From sequence record MH243438.1: 64,000 nucleotides of DNA. One strand, given 5' to 3'. The position numbers and the translations under genes are program-made. The notes beneath the pieces were generated by a model that searched no databases, was not told where the DNA came from, and worked only from the letters and a program-made list of their open reading frames with translations. This DNA comes from Escherichia phage vB_EcoM_NBG1. Shown here one piece after another: positions 2,369-8,896 of this stretch. Position 1 is the stretch's first letter; every line of letters begins with the position of its first letter.

Positions 2369-2827
2369 TTATAGTAGGGTAGTGAGTACCTTATATAACG
2401 ATTTGCCCATCACATATTCCCATTGAGAAGGTTTAATTAAAGCGAATGCATCAAATTCAGGAATCTGTCGTCCGTCTGGGAATGTATGATAGGAATTACA
2501 AACACTGTTTCTGAATTGCTCGTGCTCTACAGGGATGGTATATAGGAACAGATGAATATTCTTATTGTCTGAGTAATGATGTTCACCTAGGTCTTTCAGG
2601 AAGGCAGGGTCGTATTGTGTAAACCCAGTTTCTTCTTCGCATTCACGAATAGCGGCTTCAATAGGAGATTCGCCAGGTTCGACACGGCCTTTAGGAATAT
2701 CCCACCTATGAGCTAATGCACCTTTAGAACGAGAACCAGTTACACGCCCCATGAATAATTCTTTATCTTCGGTAAGGAAAATAATACCGGCTGATAGTTC
2801 TTTCACTTTATTTTTCTTACTCATCAT
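2369..2827 (-). CDS. nudE: Nudix hydrolase
   Basis: Nudix box G-x5-E-x7-REC-EEETG (GRVEPGESPIEAAIRECEEETGF); position after e as in T4 e.1. Confidence 0.85.
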   Translation of the reverse strand: MMSKKNKVKELSAGIIFLTEDKELFMGRVTGSRSKGALAHRWDIPKGRVEPGESPIEAAIRECEEETGFTQYDPAFLKDLGEHHYSDNKNIHLFLYTIPVEHEQFRNSVCNSYHTFPDGRQIPEFDAFALIKPSQWEYVMGKSLYKVLTTLL

Positions 2828-3053
2828 CTCGGTCCCATGATTTGGCCATTAATTCGGACATAAATTCTTCAATGCGCGTTTCTTTAGATGGACTTTCACT
2901 ATTAGAGACCGCAAGTTTGTAATCTGCAATAGGACAGAACATATCAAGGTCCATATTAAGGTCGTCTTTGATTTTTTCTTCTGACACATCTTTATCGTAT
3001 GTGTACAGATAACTATCACATGATTCTGATTTAATGTAAATTGCTATACTCAT
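2817..3053 (-). CDS. hypothetical protein
   Basis: ORF with internal ATG 3053 (MSIAIY) 9 nt after AGGA; ATGA overlap with upstream gene stop. Confidence 0.5.
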   Translation of the reverse strand: MSIAIYIKSESCDSYLYTYDKDVSEEKIKDDLNMDLDMFCPIADYKLAVSNSESPSKETRIEEFMSELMAKSWDRDDE

Positions 3054-3541
3054 CTCAAATTCCTGCATTCGGTAATAAAACGTTCAACTTCATTATTCTT
3101 GGCCTTTATCTTGTCTTTACGTTCCTGTAAACTACTTTTAACAAGATTAATAATGATGCCTACAGTACCGCCGCCAATGATGCCGCCAACAACACTTATG
3201 ATAATAGATGCTAATAAGATAGCAATAATATCAACAAAACCGAAAGAACTCACCTTAGTACTAAAAAACCATACCGACGGTACAAATATAATCCATCCTG
3301 TTATCCATTGGCACTTATTGAAAAACTTTTCAAGCTCAGCTTGAGTTGTTCGTATTACTTCATCGATAGGTTGATATCCATTAATGTATCTGTTCACGAT
3401 AATACCTGCTGGCTGGTCGATTTTAAATTCTTGGCAAATATGTTTCACTAAGTAGGATGGACATCCTGTCCAATCTACTGAATAGTATGAAATACCTTCG
3501 TTGCCATCGTCTATATTAGACCAATATGTTTTGTTAATCAT
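3050..3541 (-). CDS. hypothetical membrane protein with C-terminal FITECR tail
   Basis: Two hydrophobic segments (WITGWIIFVPSVWFF; FVDIIAILLASIIISVVGGIIGGG); C-terminal ...ERFITECRNLR. Confidence 0.55.
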   Translation of the reverse strand: MINKTYWSNIDDGNEGISYYSVDWTGCPSYLVKHICQEFKIDQPAGIIVNRYINGYQPIDEVIRTTQAELEKFFNKCQWITGWIIFVPSVWFFSTKVSSFGFVDIIAILLASIIISVVGGIIGGGTVGIIINLVKSSLQERKDKIKAKNNEVERFITECRNLR

Positions 3542-4227
3542 TACCAGCCTTCCATAGGGAATTCCAGATAAACTTGAGCATTGACACGAATTTCATTGGT
3601 AATCTTTTTAACTCGGTCTGTATTACGAGATACACGTCCGAACCAACGCCATCCGTTACTAATTGCACGAGAACCAGTGTGCCATGTTTGCCAATCAAAC
3701 TGAAGAAGAGTACGATCTGGAGCTTCCCATTTCTCTAGTTCACCTTTTTCAATTTTTTCGAGGACTTCTTTGTGCCACTGGCGATAGATAAGTTCGCCAT
3801 CAGGAATCTGACTGAACTCTGCAGTTCCTGTTGCAAAATGAGTAGGACACACGTCAGCGTTAACAAGACCAAGAATATGTTCAGAATGGTAACGAGGGTT
3901 GTCATAGTCAGGTTGTCCTGCAGTAATAAAGTGTTGACCAACTGGAATATCAGGGCGAGGAACATCATCATGGTGGTATCCAGGAATAGCAGGATACCAA
4001 CCAGGCATCAGCATATGAACCCGAGAATCAAATACAACATGTTGATTAGTCCAATCAATTGGGAGATTGGCAATAAAGCTACGAGTGATTGAGCCACCAT
4101 TATCCCAAGCAAAACCCAAATCACAATTAAAGAACATTGGTTCATTTTTGATTCGGTCATTTTGTACGTTATGTGCAAAACTACCAACTGCACGAGCTTG
4201 ACTATTAAAAGTTTTAGAACTATTCAT
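3541..4227 (-). CDS. hypothetical protein, possible Fe(II)/2-oxoglutarate dioxygenase-like
   Basis: 228 aa; H85-H86-D87 ... H183 ... R198-V-S pattern resembles HxD...H...RxS triad; not verified by any search. Confidence 0.3.
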   Translation of the reverse strand: MNSSKTFNSQARAVGSFAHNVQNDRIKNEPMFFNCDLGFAWDNGGSITRSFIANLPIDWTNQHVVFDSRVHMLMPGWYPAIPGYHHDDVPRPDIPVGQHFITAGQPDYDNPRYHSEHILGLVNADVCPTHFATGTAEFSQIPDGELIYRQWHKEVLEKIEKGELEKWEAPDRTLLQFDWQTWHTGSRAISNGWRWFGRVSRNTDRVKKITNEIRVNAQVYLEFPMEGW

Positions 4228-4228
4228 A

Positions 4229-4534
4229 TTATTTTCCTCGACATTCTTTAATGAAATTTTCTAGATTGGTAGATTCAATAGCTTTTTTACGAGCTTCTGC
4301 ATGTTCTTCTTCAGACAATTTACATTTATAATTAACCCAGACATTATGGTCGAAACTAGTCGTGGCATATAATAACAATGCTCCAACGAATAGCAAAAAC
4401 GGCGATAAGAATACAAAACCAGGAACACCATCCATATCGTAAGCCTTTTGTAATACTGCAACAGAAAGAGCTGCGTAAAAAGGTGATGCAAATATTGTTA
4501 AAAGACCAATTCGGTTGGTTTCGCCTAATTTCAT
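4229..4534 (-). CDS. hypothetical small membrane protein with C-terminal ENFIKECR tail
   Basis: Two hydrophobic segments; C-terminal ...LENFIKECRGK; SD GAGGAGAA upstream; 1-nt spacer to next gene. Confidence 0.55.
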   Translation of the reverse strand: MKLGETNRIGLLTIFASPFYAALSVAVLQKAYDMDGVPGFVFLSPFLLFVGALLLYATTSFDHNVWVNYKCKLSEEEHAEARKKAIESTNLENFIKECRGK

Positions 4535-4873: not shown

Positions 4874-5830
4874 TTATTTGAAAGGTTTTACCATATGAAA
4901 GTTTTGTTTGAAACGCTTGACGTAATCGTCGTGTCCTAAGCTTTGGTACATACTTACTACTTTGCTATAATTTTCCCAAGCGAACTCACGGAACCATCCT
5001 GATGTGATTGATGTACAGACCTTTTCAAGGGCCATCATAAAACTATCACGTGGATGGATTTTAAAGTCGTTAGGAATCTGTGAACGTTCAAGAGCTAATA
5101 CACAAGCTTCTTCATATACACCGGCTAATTTAACCATTTCTGGTAATGATTTGAACTTCTCGCGTGATGTCATAACTTCTGAGCCTTCTTTCATATAAAA
5201 CTTATAAGCAGGCTGGTCAGTTAGTGCAATGGCTTCATGAATAGTATCATGGTCATATGTATAGATGTCATCTTTAAAGAACGCACTTTTAGAAGTGTCA
5301 AGAACTGGGTGAGCATAATTCAAGGTTTCTTTCTGGCGTTTCAGCATAATTTCAGTAAGTTCATCGTTCAGTGTAACACCTTTACCACGAAGATACTGAA
5401 TATGATTCATAGTCTTTAAAAAGAATGGATTATTTTTCTTGAAACGATGAGACATCTTAATTGCAAGACATATCTCGGGAGTTGCCCAGTAAAACCCGTT
5501 CAAACGGTCTTTAGTCAAATTTTTCTTGGCGTATTTTAAAAGGTCATAAGAAGACGTGAAATCTTCAGGAGTGAGTTCACCAACTAATTCACGGACATTA
5601 GTGATTGCCGGAACAATATATGCTTCAAAATGAGTTTCGCGTCCATTATGGAAGCATTTGAAAACTTGGACGTCAGGGTTATCTTGGTGAACGTATACAC
5701 CCATCATTTGATTTTTGAATGCATTCCAAGAACATTGGTCCGCAATAAAATCCCAATCACTATTTTTGATAGCGCTAGAATCAATAAGACCATGATAGTG
5801 AAGTGCACGAGAACCAATAACTAACATCAT
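4874..5830 (-). CDS. hypothetical protein, possible nucleotidyltransferase fold
   Basis: 318 aa; N-terminal VIGSRALHYHGLIDSSAIKNSDWDFIA resembles GS...DxD of Pol-beta-type NTases but spacing is atypical; SD GAGGAA. Confidence 0.3.
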   Translation of the reverse strand: MMLVIGSRALHYHGLIDSSAIKNSDWDFIADQCSWNAFKNQMMGVYVHQDNPDVQVFKCFHNGRETHFEAYIVPAITNVRELVGELTPEDFTSSYDLLKYAKKNLTKDRLNGFYWATPEICLAIKMSHRFKKNNPFFLKTMNHIQYLRGKGVTLNDELTEIMLKRQKETLNYAHPVLDTSKSAFFKDDIYTYDHDTIHEAIALTDQPAYKFYMKEGSEVMTSREKFKSLPEMVKLAGVYEEACVLALERSQIPNDFKIHPRDSFMMALEKVCTSITSGWFREFAWENYSKVVSMYQSLGHDDYVKRFKQNFHMVKPFK

Positions 5831-6157: not shown

Positions 6158-6355
6158 TTAGCAAGAATAACTAGATGATACCCAGCCTTGAACAGTGATA
6201 CTATTGTGGGATAATGAGATCGCGTCCTGGAGATTCAGACCTGCGTTATCTTCAATCCATAATGTAACTTCTTCGCGTTCTTCTGTTGCAATTTGGAACA
6301 GGTTTTCCAGAGCAGCTACTGCCGTACGTACAGCACAATCTAATTCACGAGACAT
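6158..6355 (-). CDS. small protein, paralog family with C-terminal GWVSSS..C
   Basis: 65 aa ending ...VQGWVSSSYSC; third of three tandem paralogs. Confidence 0.55.
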   Translation of the reverse strand: MSRELDCAVRTAVAALENLFQIATEEREEVTLWIEDNAGLNLQDAISLSHNSITVQGWVSSSYSC

Positions 6356-6364
6356 ATTGTTTCC

Positions 6365-6637
6365 TTAGCAAGTGTGAGAAGATGCGACCCAACCACCAGT
6401 TTCGAGGCTCAGGTTGTAGTCGTATTGGTAAACGTCAGCCCATTCAGCATAGCCGTTTTTTGTACAACGTTCAAGATCGGCTTTAAGATGTCCGGGTGAA
6501 TGATAGGTTCCACCCATACCATAAGCTGGATACAAGTCGAATGTTGTGTTTTGTTTATCAGCAATTTCTTTGGCAGCCTCAATAGCTGCATAGATTTTTG
6601 CTACAGCTTCAGCCAGTTCGGTTTGTTCTTTAGACAT
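6365..6637 (-). CDS. small protein, paralog family with C-terminal GWVASS..C
   Basis: 90 aa ending ...ETGGWVASSHTC; junction TGCTAAGGAAACAATATG to next gene. Confidence 0.55.
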   Translation of the reverse strand: MSKEQTELAEAVAKIYAAIEAAKEIADKQNTTFDLYPAYGMGGTYHSPGHLKADLERCTKNGYAEWADVYQYDYNLSLETGGWVASSHTC

Positions 6638-6646
6638 AATGATTCC

Positions 6647-6952
6647 TTAGCACAACGCAGAAGACGAAACCCAAGCACCTTCAGTAATAACGTAACCGTT
6701 ACCTTCACGCTTAACATCGCCACCATTATTTTCAATTTCATCTTTCATCCACTGGGATACGATTTCACCCTTAGGATAATAAGTACGACCACTACCATAA
6801 TCACCTACAGAAAATGATACAGCATATTGGTCTGCGATCTTTGTTGCTTCTTCTTCGATACGTTCAGCTTGATTCAGAAGTTTATAAATTGCATCTGAAG
6901 CGGATTTGGCATCATTAAACTCTGGTACTTTAATTTCAATAATCTTACTCAT
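6647..6952 (-). CDS. small protein, paralog family with C-terminal AWVSSS..C
   Basis: 101 aa ending ...TEGAWVSSSALC; junction TGCTAAGGAATCATTATG. Confidence 0.55.
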   Translation of the reverse strand: MSKIIEIKVPEFNDAKSASDAIYKLLNQAERIEEEATKIADQYAVSFSVGDYGSGRTYYPKGEIVSQWMKDEIENNGGDVKREGNGYVITEGAWVSSSALC

Positions 6953-7308
6953 TTTCTACATTCCTTAATAAAGTTTTCGATTGTTTCATTTTCACGTTTA
7001 GCTAGGAGTTCATTATAACTAATCATTTGAGAAGCGTAAACCTTTTTATTTTTCTTGTTATGGTTTATAAAATCGTAGTAAAAATAGACCACAGTACAAA
7101 ATGATGCGATGGATGCAAAGGCTTGGGTATACCGTAAGTCCTGCCATTGGTCTGTGAATCCACCGGTATTCCCTATAAATCCTAACACAACTCCGTCAAT
7201 AAGAAATCCAACTAATCCAAAGGCAAATCCCATGCCAATACTCATAATAAAAATTAGAATGTTCTCGCCGAGAGAAGGCCGAACAGTTAAGAGTTTAGGT
7301 TTTTGCAT
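6949..7308 (-). CDS. hypothetical membrane protein with C-terminal ENFIKECR tail
   Basis: Hydrophobic segments (ILIFIMSIGMGFAFGLVGFLIDGVVLGFIG; FASIASFCTVVYFYY); C-terminal ...IENFIKECRK. Confidence 0.55.
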   Translation of the reverse strand: MQKPKLLTVRPSLGENILIFIMSIGMGFAFGLVGFLIDGVVLGFIGNTGGFTDQWQDLRYTQAFASIASFCTVVYFYYDFINHNKKNKKVYASQMISYNELLAKRENETIENFIKECRK

Positions 7309-7682
7309 CTTATTTCCTTAACGAATTCCATAGCTTCTTCGTATTCGTACTTTTTAACAGCTTCGTCATACTGAGCTTGGGCTTTTGCGCACTGAACTTT
7401 CCATTCGCGTACTCGAGCTCTATAATGACGTCCTTGGTACCAATATCCCACCCAGTTAATAGGCATTAATAAAAATGGCACAATAAACGACCCGGCTATA
7501 ATAAGTAAAAACACTGCATCAGACGATATAACTTCACTAGAATCTAAAACAGCTCCTATAATCATAAAGATTAAAAATGCTAAAGCTAAAATAGGGCCAA
7601 ATAGTACTTCGTTTGGGATTAATTTACGTTTGTATTCGTATGCCCAGGGCTTAATTGGTTGATAAAGGGTTGGCTTTGACAT
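7287..7682 (-). CDS. hypothetical membrane protein with degenerate C-terminal EFVKEIRC tail
   Basis: Start moved to ATG 7682 (MSKPTLYQ); two hydrophobic segments; 3' end overlaps next gene start by 22 nt. Confidence 0.5.
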   Translation of the reverse strand: MSKPTLYQPIKPWAYEYKRKLIPNEVLFGPILALAFLIFMIIGAVLDSSEVISSDAVFLLIIAGSFIVPFLLMPINWVGYWYQGRHYRARVREWKVQCAKAQAQYDEAVKKYEYEEAMEFVKEIRCKNLNS

Positions 7683-8253
7683 ATTCTCTACATTCCATAA
7701 TAAATTGCTCAAGGATTAAATTGTTAGTGAAATTAGGACTAACAACCATAGTTTCATAAAGCGCATCAATAGCACTTAAAGCATCAACTCTCTTAAGCAA
7801 AGGCTTGCCTTCATACATAGTTTCAGAATCGACGATTAAAGTGAAGTAGTATTTTTTATTATTGACCAGAACTTCTGTATCAATATAAAACATGTTAGAC
7901 CTCAGAAGCTTATCTCTAAAACCATAATAATCTTTAGAGCGTTCGCTGATATATTCCCATTCAGTGTTTAAACAACAAACAGACCATGTAGGAGCAACGA
8001 AATCGGTGAATCTAATATCATGGTCTGCAACTAGTTTAGCAATAGCTCCGATATCATGAATCATAATACCTGGGGTTAATAAAGATTTTCTGCTATGGCT
8101 AGCCGTTTTCTCAGTAGTCTCATAAGAAGACGACCAGTACCATTTACGTCCAGTTGCAACATATCGTAATGAATCAACTAAAGACGTAGGTGGATTTACC
8201 TTATCTCGGAACTCTTCGAACATTGAGTCAATATCATTATTTTGGTTTCGCAT
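7651..8253 (-). CDS. hypothetical protein with C-terminal QFIMECRE motif
   Basis: Start at ATG 8253 (MRNQNN) 6 nt after AAGGAG; no obvious TM segment; motif 13 aa from the C-terminus. Confidence 0.5.
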   Translation of the reverse strand: MRNQNNDIDSMFEEFRDKVNPPTSLVDSLRYVATGRKWYWSSSYETTEKTASHSRKSLLTPGIMIHDIGAIAKLVADHDIRFTDFVAPTWSVCCLNTEWEYISERSKDYYGFRDKLLRSNMFYIDTEVLVNNKKYYFTLIVDSETMYEGKPLLKRVDALSAIDALYETMVVSPNFTNNLILEQFIMECREYVKANPLSTN

Positions 8254-8270
8254 GTTAACTCCTTTATTAT

Positions 8271-8294
8271 CCAAAAGGAGGACCGGAGTCCTCC
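8271..8294 (-). terminator. rho-independent terminator-like hairpin (GGAGGAC-loop-GTCCTCC then UUUU)
   Basis: 7-bp GC-rich stem followed by T-run on the minus strand, 9 nt downstream of stop at 8303 and ~18 nt before the next ATG. Confidence 0.55.
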
Positions 8295-8302
8295 GTATTA
8301 TT

Positions 8303-8896
8303 TTATTTCAAAGAGTTAATATATTCTTGTACATCAGCAGAAGTGGTTTCGACACCAGCTGGAGTGCCATTGAACGTTTCAACACGAGTCAGAGTGTCTT
8401 CGATATCAACCTTAGTCAGTGCAGCGATTTCAATTACATCATCAGCCGTAGAGATACCAAGGGCATTGGCTGCTCGAGTTTCACGAATGTATTCGAGTTT
8501 GATTGCCAGATTCTGACGAGCATCATCAAGTTCAACCACCTTACGAGCAATTTCAATTCGCATAGCGGCATACCCGTCAGCTTTTGTATTAAGTTGTTCG
8601 GCAGTTCGACGATACAGAAGACCAAGCTTAGCATGCATAGTAACATCTTGTCCTTCAGCCAGGAGCTTACGAATTTCACGTTCCTTAGAAGCGGCTTGCT
8701 TGTTCTTTTCATTAACAAGTTCGCGAATACGTTTTTCTTCATTAATAGATTTAACAGAAGCCGTTTTTAGTTCTTTGATTTGGGTAATCAACTTATCTGC
8801 AGCTGCGTTATACTGTTCTTCGACAGTCAGATTTTTAGCCATAGCAGTACCCAGTTTAGTGCGGATGAATTCAACAAGTTTCTTCAGTGTGTTCAT
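8303..8896 (-). CDS. coiled-coil protein, possibly PspA/IM30-like
   Basis: 197 aa, highly charged helical heptad-like sequence; start at ATG 8896 (MNTLKK) after AAGGT; family assignment is a guess. Confidence 0.3.

Follow-up and report, generated by a model that had tools for sequence, protein, structure and literature searches.

A conserved phage protein family with a predicted Fe(II)/2-oxoglutarate oxygenase fold and recurrent NadV-like neighbors

We analyzed a 64,000-nt stretch of Escherichia phage vB_EcoM_NBG1 (record MH243438.1; hereafter the window, to which all plain coordinates refer) and focus on one gene, located at 3541-4227, that probably encodes a non-haem Fe(II)/2-oxoglutarate (2OG)-dependent oxygenase, as judged from its sequence and predicted structure; this degree of confidence applies to the enzyme class only. 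The gene is real, selected and conserved phage-wide. Its homologs form a family that is essentially viral and almost exclusively phage-borne, and in several unrelated lineages they stand directly beside NadV-like genes of viral NAD+ salvage. The window is ~98% identical to Escherichia phages p000y, vB_Eco_F31 and mobillu, placing it in Mosigvirus, a T4-like group of the Straboviridae, and the 228-aa product has the same sequence as mobillu_78, a hypothetical protein of phage mobillu. A preliminary description of this DNA had claimed a 228-aa open reading frame (ORF) at this exact span, which was borne out, with the addition that the gene lies on the minus strand. That description had also noted the residues H85-H86-D87, H183 and R198-V199-S200 and read them as an oxygenase motif; checking the codons against the DNA showed these positions to be correct.

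The predicted oxygenase and its conserved residues

The gene and the codons of the residues proposed to form its active site are as follows; the degenerate fusion copies cited as evidence are described further below.

3541-4227, minus strand: coding sequence of the 228-aa predicted Fe(II)/2OG oxygenase, with an ATG start (ORF call and translation)
3967-3975, minus strand: codons of H85-H86-D87, in which H85 and D87 are the proposed HxD pair of Fe(II) ligands (conservation; loss in degenerate fusion copies)
3973-3975, minus strand: codon of H85
3967-3969, minus strand: codon of D87
3841-3843, minus strand: codon of T129, a conserved Thr that opens predicted strand 129-138 and is lost along with the triad (conservation; all three degenerate copies)
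3679-3681, minus strand: codon of H183, the proposed distal Fe(II) ligand, in short predicted strand 182-185 (conservation; model; loss in fusion copies)
3628-3648, minus strand: codons of R194-W-F-G-R198-V-S200 in predicted strand 192-201, the proposed site for the 2OG C5-carboxylate and a substrate anion (conservation)
3634-3636, minus strand: codon of R198
3628-3630, minus strand: codon of S200
3544-3549, minus strand: codons of G227-W228-COOH, the conserved extreme C-terminus (conservation; kept only by the C-terminal fusion copy)

The bare HxD...H...RxS pattern is weak evidence, and its loose-spacing form was found in 834 of 20,000 shuffles of the same protein (~4%); its significance comes from conservation. 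We collected 1290 homologs from a 90%-clustered collection, and an exhaustive HMMER scan returned 603 representatives of 50%-identity clusters. Conservation was scored over 123 near-full-length 50%-cluster representatives plus the query (124 sequences). H85 is conserved in 99% of these, D87 in 98% (with one Glu), H183, R194 and R198 in 98% each and S/T200 in 94%, giving the family signature H85-x-D87 ... H183-x10-R194-x3-R198-x-S/T200. Further conserved positions are D67 and R91 (97% each), Y220 (95%), R214 (93%), H117 and G227 (92% each), and T129 and W228 (91% each), while H86 stands at 51%. The motif residues are retained in homologs down to about 25% identity. The frequency among the shuffles could suggest that the motif arose by chance in an ORF without enzymatic significance, but this is effectively refuted by 98-99% motif conservation over hundreds of diverged homologs and by the confident predicted fold.

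An AlphaFold2 model built from 52 homologs was confident (mean predicted local distance difference test score (pLDDT) 90.6; predicted template modelling score (pTM) 0.88) and showed N-terminal helices (23-28, 37-43, 46-53 and 57-60) preceding strand 65-73 and a beta-rich core with the double-stranded beta-helix (DSBH), or jelly-roll, fold typical of the superfamily. A helix at 147-160 sits between strands 129-138 and 165-168. In the PhyH-like structural family, N-terminal helices pack on the major sheet and a long insert separates DSBH strands IV and V, features to which these modelled helices may correspond. H183 lies within the short strand 182-185, and R194, R198 and S200 lie within the long strand 192-201; in a tentative DSBH numbering these two would correspond to strands VII and VIII, where the distal His and the 2OG-binding Arg are canonically found. 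The pLDDT was low at residues 225-228. Away from the ends, the model is least certain (pLDDT 69-79) around residues 93-100, D-I-P-V-G-Q-H-F (nt about 3928-3951), an insertion of the T4-like clade that is a gap in >90% of other representatives.

A Foldseek search of the PDB with this model listed 50 matches, of which 49 were 2OG oxygenases, including HygX, ThoJ, ColD, MysH, SptF and KanJ; the one other match, 9gyz_A (rank 45), is an uncharacterized DUF4867 protein. The scores were weak (E about 1e-3, template modelling score 0.3-0.4), and the predicted fold assignment is consistent at a remote level of similarity. On the basis of these matches the modelled fold appears closest to the PhyH-type branch of the DSBH superfamily, with AlkB homologs as mid-ranked matches below the PhyH-type small-molecule enzymes. 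Searching the viral structure collection BFVD returned unnamed members of the same family and weak matches to PhyH-like or prolyl 4-hydroxylase (P4H)-like viral proteins.

Sequence profiles gave no name to the protein. Pfam contained no family matching the 228-aa protein at E<=1, the NCBIfam search had no match, and no 2OG family of Pfam was detected in 56 diverged members or in the long and fused ones. Curated 2OG-oxygenase profiles (PhyH, 2OG-FeII_Oxy_1-5, TauD and others) likewise gave no significant match. Searches of PDB sequences by phmmer and by the family profile yielded nothing credible; matches to isopentenyl-diphosphate isomerase and rhinovirus VP2 (E>0.1) were rejected as noise. 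A further search used gp078 of Pseudoalteromonas phage H101, which among the members from cultured phages is the most divergent; the 51 relatives it retrieved have neither domains nor informative names. The family is thus a diverged and uncurated one within a known kind of enzyme.

Taken at the level of individual residues, the facial-triad pattern HxD/E...H is conserved, and H85, D87 and H183 are the proposed Fe(II) ligands. Two basic residues follow the distal His on strand 192-201. R198, at His+15, forms with S/T200 the classical RxS motif, and R194 lies at His+11. In EctD, the Fe ligands are H146, D148 and H248, the 2OG-binding Arg is R259 at His+11, and the Ser of a family-specific His-x-Ser hydrogen-bonds 2OG (PMC2871039). 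R194 (H183+11) matches this placement of R259 (H248+11), and we infer from the sequence that R194, possibly R198, binds 2OG. The position equivalent to the His-x-Ser Ser of PhyH enzymes, residue 185, is Gly in 70% of the representatives, Ala in 22% and Ser in only 3 of 124, so the family as a whole lacks this PhyH-type feature.

These observations modify the preliminary description. Its two proposed checks, for a jelly-roll fold and for conservation of the motif residues in homologs, both came out in its favor, as the fold is predicted with high confidence with structural neighbors that are almost exclusively 2OG oxygenases. Its reading as an Fe(II)/2OG oxygenase is supported by this fold and the conserved residues, whereas H86 as a ligand is not, and no AlkB, PhyH or other curated 2OG profile matches the sequence. 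H86, which it had proposed for mutation, is not part of the motif, and H85 is the candidate for the first Fe ligand. R198-V-S as the site of the 2OG Arg stands to the extent that R198 is highly conserved, but the invariant R194, which went unnoticed in that description, is at least an equally good candidate.

The protein can be compared with several groups of known enzymes. The closest PhyH-type enzymes are human PHYH (2a1x), EctD (4nmi, 3emr), EasH (4nao), ColD (8xpf) and HygX (4xc9). The phage protein has an Arg at distal His+11, the place of the 2OG-binding Arg in EctD and PhyH. It differs in that it has no PF05721 match, replaces His-x-Ser by His-x-Gly/Ala, carries an additional R198-x-S/T200 and a C-terminal NEIRxQVQVY...GW tail, is shorter (about 205-230 versus 250-300 aa) and is phage-restricted. 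It differs from AlkB and ALKBH proteins in lacking a PF13532 (2OG-FeII_Oxy_2) match, the analysis gave no sign of a nucleotide-recognition lid, and its Arg spacing is unlike the H187...R204...R210 of AlkB. A closer spacing is found in the TauD/TfdA enzymes, where the distal His-x10-Arg-x3-Arg of TauD (H255, R266, R270) is the same as H183, R194 and R198 of the phage protein, and the conserved T129 upstream is a further likeness. Finally, the 2OG-Fe(II) oxygenases and PhyH-like auxiliary genes of cyanophages and giant viruses resemble the family in being virus-encoded DSBH oxygenases of unknown substrate that appear as weak BFVD matches. They differ in having recognizable Pfam domains and names, whereas the family described here has neither and finds its best BFVD matches among its own unnamed members.

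A natural experiment on the active site is provided by three proteins of 387-444 aa (P0137, P0185 and P0258), which are head-to-tail fusions of two family domains and offer a ready-made map of important residues. In all three, the N-terminal copy retains every conserved residue. The C-terminal copy lost all three triad residues, H85, D87 and H183, together with R194 (changes to Q, Q, N) and T129, and mostly H71 and R69 as well, and it retains the fold-type residues G192 and W193 and the terminal Gly-Trp. The common ending "DLYKGW" suggests a single ancient duplication, and the fusions are therefore counted as one event, not three. The joint loss implies that the triad, R194 and T129 work together as a unit, which is what one would expect of an Fe/2OG site. 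One of the three degenerate copies still has R198 and S200, which slightly favors R194 rather than R198 as the catalytic Arg. Retention of the degenerate second copy suggests that the native protein is likely a dimer, perhaps an obligate one, that tolerates a pseudo-subunit.

From these features a catalytic scheme can be proposed. H85, D87 and H183 would form the 2-His-1-carboxylate facial triad of a catalytically competent enzyme, 2OG would chelate the iron with its C5 carboxylate held by R194, and R198-x-S/T200 and T129 would line the same pocket. O2-dependent decarboxylation of 2OG would then generate an Fe(IV)=O intermediate, which would act on the substrate by hydroxylation or oxidative dealkylation. 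The enzyme would probably be a dimer, with the conserved C-terminal Gly-Trp at its interface, as the tandem fusions suggest.

Distribution of the family and its NadV-like neighbors

The family comprises >1,200 sequences in ~600 clusters at 50% identity, spread over T4-like, T7-like, jumbo and actinobacterial phages, and neither Pfam nor NCBIfam has a model for it. The gene is present in 472 records of the phage collection, and its carriers include enterobacterial and Aeromonas T4-like phages, Klebsiella, Serratia, Stenotrophomonas, Mycobacterium and Gordonia phages and one Alteromonas podophage. Among ~185,000 bacterial and archaeal species (one genome per species) only 26 loci were found, most of them within phage-like replication modules, and the family is therefore essentially viral. 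Nearly all copies are labelled "hypothetical", and the PHROGs assignment of the protein is phrog_1843, function unknown. Two automatic labels had already guessed the enzyme class, "Phytanoyl-CoA dioxygenase family protein" for one UniRef cluster and "2OG-Fe(II) oxygenase" for one GenBank entry, from Citrobacter phage Ursula. As the class is a familiar one, the fold assignment is by itself ordinary; the catalytic residues defined here would allow curation of the family.

In order to survey its genomic context, we assembled 80 viral-contig loci, 26 genomic loci, annotated phage regions and 11 contig look-ups (loci are cited by L numbers) and clustered the flanking ORFs. The commonest neighbor in diverged loci was an ORF of ~490 aa, always on the same strand, whose Pfam domains NAMPT_N and NAPRTase identify it as NadV/Nampt-like. 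A NadV-like gene was present in the flank of 13 loci. After dereplication at 70%, these represent 10 of 48 lineages, and in 5 of the 48 the gene lies no more than 700 nt from the homolog. The stop codon of the NadV-like gene overlaps the start of the homolog by 4 bp in L030, L040 and L060, on the basis of called ORFs. In L068 the ORF map gives the same 4-bp overlap (6589-7989 and 7986-8645), with the ends of the tblastn high-scoring segment pairs 21 nt apart, and in L054 one small ORF separates the two genes. The NadV-like proteins are 27-49% identical between lineages and the other flanking genes are mostly unique to each locus, so the arrangement is not inherited synteny. Upstream ORFs of ~480-490 aa in L085 and L087, for which NAMPT might have been assumed by size, are DnaB helicases.

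The pairing involves both types of NAD+-reconstitution module, NARP1 and NARP2. Seven loci are of the NARP2 type and also carry a gene joining NMNAT (CTP_transf_like) and Nudix domains, and four (H101, L030, L061 and L117) are of the NARP1 type, with Prs-like and NadV-like genes. Pseudoalteromonas phage H101 is the cultured example, in which gp075 (ribose-phosphate pyrophosphokinase-like), gp076 (HNH), gp077 (nicotinamide phosphoribosyltransferase) and gp078 follow one another. The last of these begins 76 nt downstream of gp077 and is a family member (hhalign probability 99.5%, E 2e-22, 27% identity, motif intact). The TARA scaffold L117 has the same layout, and in both an HNH homing-type endonuclease gene lies between the Prs-like and NadV-like genes (1601-2164 in L114, the H101 locus, and 2262-2831 in L117).

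Genes of ADP-ribose processing also occur in these regions. An archaeal metagenome-assembled genome contig (L106) has the homolog followed by an ADP-ribosylglycohydrolase (ARH) and a weak NAMPT-like gene, and L074 brings together NMNAT-Nudix, NAMPT, the homolog and, adjacent to it, ARH. A macro-domain protein is found ~6 kb from the homolog in T4-like phages, adjoins NAMPT in L068 and lies 2.4 kb downstream of the homolog in L054. In a census that took one locus per lineage and, on either side of the homolog, the closest ORF with 100 aa or more (128 proteins from 75 lineages), NAPRTase was the most frequent Pfam family (5), with ADP_ribosyl_GH occurring twice.

To judge how unusual the pairing is, background frequencies have to be considered. 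NARP2 occurs in ~1.1% of phage genomes and NARP1 and NARP2 together in ~5% (NARP paper), and a NadV-like gene is carried by 22% of phages of medium size and by 33% of jumbo phages (PMC9503650). In the phage collection used here, 2013 of 50,697 records (4.0%) carry one. With generous per-lineage probabilities of 1.3-5% for NadV within +/-8 kb and 0.2-0.8% for an adjacent gene, the binomial tail was about 1e-4 to 6e-10 for 10 of 48 lineages with NadV in the flank and 4e-5 to 5e-8 for 5 of 48 within 700 nt, figures that are rough, given some dependence among lineages and the clustering of accessory genes. The enrichment persists at 60% and 80% dereplication. The juxtaposition with NadV-like genes, often overlapping and involving both NARP types, is thus statistically unusual.

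The papers searched offer no precedent for such a partner. NARP1 (Adps and Namat) and NARP2 (Nampt and Nmnat) both have NadV-like genes that family members adjoin, often with translational coupling, but these modules work without any dioxygenase. The NARP paper makes no mention of extra operon genes or of a dioxygenase, and NARP3 is composed of PnuC and NadR with no dioxygenase component mentioned (NARP3 paper). A survey of 21,191 viral proteomes (PMC9503650) contains zero occurrences of dioxygenase-related words, and searchable papers, including those from a targeted literature search, name no dioxygenase, DSBH or cupin protein as a partner of NAD+ salvage in viruses.

Two further observations were made in these contigs. 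A ~680-aa protein without a Pfam match and an adjacent ORF of ~125 aa are located a few kb from the homolog in four viral contigs, two of which have NadV (the larger gene at 2278-4377 in L030, 9158-11149 in L036, 11960-14116 in L048 and 2072-4048 in L054). In addition, ARAGORN predicted permuted tmRNA-like genes beside large tRNA arrays at 12881-13525 in L040 and 12312-12700 in L060, and both contigs carry the NAMPT-oxygenase pair.

Candidate substrates and competing explanations

As the gene is repeatedly joined to NadV-like genes of NAD+-reconstitution modules, its substrate may be a small anionic metabolite or adduct of NAD+, ADP-ribose or nucleotide metabolism rather than bulk DNA, a suggestion we make tentatively. 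More speculative still is a role as an accessory enzyme of phage NAD+/ADP-ribose counter-defence, in which it would form a two-gene cassette with the NadV-like phosphoribosyltransferases of both NARP types and oxidize an NAD+-derived molecule. Candidate activities are the destruction or recycling of an ADP-ribose-derived immune signal or dead-end product and an AlkB-style oxidation that would free nucleic acid of an ADP-ribosyl or other N-linked adduct. If true, this would extend the NAD+-centred conflict between phage and host to oxidative chemistry. The pairing is a concrete lead in phage escape from NAD+-depleting immunity, for which the cultured H101 genes gp075-gp078 are available.

The link of the family to NAD+ metabolism is partial. 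The window contains no homolog of NadV, NMNAT, ARH, macro-domain protein, RtcB or PF09414 ligase, and its closest relevant neighbor is a NudE-type Nudix gene two genes downstream. In T7-like contigs the homolog directly follows the gene for RNA polymerase or DNA polymerase, with no NAD genes nearby, bacterial and prophage loci have it beside DnaB or PolA, and most family members occur in genomes or regions without NARP genes. Because NAD-salvage, ADP-ribose-processing and RNA-repair genes share neighborhoods in large phages (PMC9503650), part of the NadV signal may be regional co-location. Translational coupling in several unrelated lineages is the feature that such co-location has most difficulty in explaining.

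The strongest competitor is an AlkB-like demethylation or hydroxylation of DNA, or more plausibly of RNA or tRNA bases, in phage RNA repair or tRNA maintenance, which we regard as conceivable at somewhat lower odds than the small-metabolite substrate. RNA/tRNA maintenance is a second recurrent theme around the family and comprises RtcB (five loci), a PF09414 RNA ligase, Rnl1 with PNKP, Thg1, an aminoacyl-tRNA synthetase with a CCA-adding enzyme, and tRNA arrays. Mycobacterium phage Bongo and Gordonia phage Smoothie have RtcB and tRNA arrays beside the homolog. As a general rule, linkage to RtcB was rejected, since just 3 of the initial 84 loci have RtcB at a distance of up to 8 kb (five when Mycobacterium prophages are included), and tRNA proximity, seen in about 9 of 46 diverged loci, was dropped as evidence since it is too near the chance level for large phages. 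Against the AlkB-like role are also the absence of any match to AlkB or other nucleic-acid oxygenase profiles, the higher structural rank of PhyH-type small-molecule enzymes, and the fact that no single RNA-repair gene is as tightly or repeatedly coupled as NadV, the strongest neighborhood signal being NAD+ salvage and not DNA repair. Among the other cultured contexts, Yersinia phage fHe-Yen9-01, Stenotrophomonas phage SBP2phi2 and Aeromonas phage CC2 were uninformative, with nearly all neighbors hypothetical.

Two explanations that change the target or the chemistry appear improbable to a similar degree. The protein could be a hydroxylase for host takeover that acts on a host or phage protein in the manner of prolyl 4-hydroxylases or ribosomal oxygenases, but no P4H or JmjC profile matches it, no recurrent partner gene points to a protein target, and the conserved R91, R194, R198 and R214 would better fit an anionic small molecule or nucleotide. 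Alternatively, it could be a cupin-like DSBH protein other than an oxygenase, that is, a metal-dependent isomerase or hydrolase, or a ligand-binding protein such as a sponge for an NAD-derived signal, with the arginines binding phosphates. The lack of a sequence match to any 2OG family and the moderate structural scores agree with such a protein, and neighbors that are phosphoribosyl and ADP-ribose enzymes would also suit a phosphate-binding site. Set against this are the conserved triad and its joint loss with R194 and T129, and an Fe(II)/2OG oxygenase remains our preferred reading.

Genes surrounding the oxygenase in the window

The neighbors relevant to the oxygenase gene are listed below.

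4229-4534, minus strand: upstream 101-aa small membrane-type protein in the same transcription unit, phrog_9798
3050-3541, minus strand: downstream 163-aa membrane protein, phrog_2203
4874-5830, minus strand: 318-aa DUF7277+DUF7275 protein, ~650 nt upstream of the oxygenase gene (Pfam)
2369-2827, minus strand: NudE-type Nudix hydrolase, two genes downstream in the same orientation (Pfam NUDIX, E 3e-16; nudix hydrolase in the mobillu annotation)

The TAA of the upstream 101-aa gene ends 1 nt before the oxygenase ATG, with a Shine-Dalgarno-like GAGGAAA a few bases upstream, and the ATG of the downstream 163-aa gene overlaps the oxygenase stop codon as TAATG. This tight same-strand packing makes translational coupling of the oxygenase gene to both small membrane-protein genes plausible, lending sequence-level support to the coupling claimed in the preliminary description. 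The oxygenase would then be an early or accessory gene product, made together with two small membrane proteins, with early expression being presumed.

These two neighbors and three further small predicted membrane or unknown proteins (3050-3541, 4229-4534, 6949-7308, 7287-7712 and 7651-8274, all on the minus strand) have a common C-terminal motif, E-x-F-I-(K/T/M)-E-C-R, exemplified by ENFIKECRGK, ERFITECRNLR, ENFIKECRK and EQFIMECRE. On this basis they look like a paralogous family, two members of which are coupled to the oxygenase gene.

The DUF7277+DUF7275 protein recurs near family members in T4-like phages, in Aeromonas CC2-like phages and in L116 (3083-3997) and L118 (9446-10399). In the latter two, the oxygenase homologs are only ~27-30% identical to the window protein and the DUF7275 domains are 44-50% identical. 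A PDB sequence search with this protein gave no match, and its N-terminus (GS...x17...DxD) looks like that of a Pol-beta-type nucleotidyltransferase.

Two other groups of small genes were observed in the window. Tandem paralogs of 65, 90 and 101 aa at 6158-6355, 6365-6637 and 6647-6952 (minus strand) all end in G-W-V-x-S-S-x-x-C. Four small minus-strand proteins (95-424, 450-764, 829-1089 and 1568-1864) start with MK(T/M)Y(Q/K/S)EF(I/L)xE, which resembles the capsid-targeting sequence of T4 internal proteins, and they appear to be internal-protein paralogs flanking denV and e.

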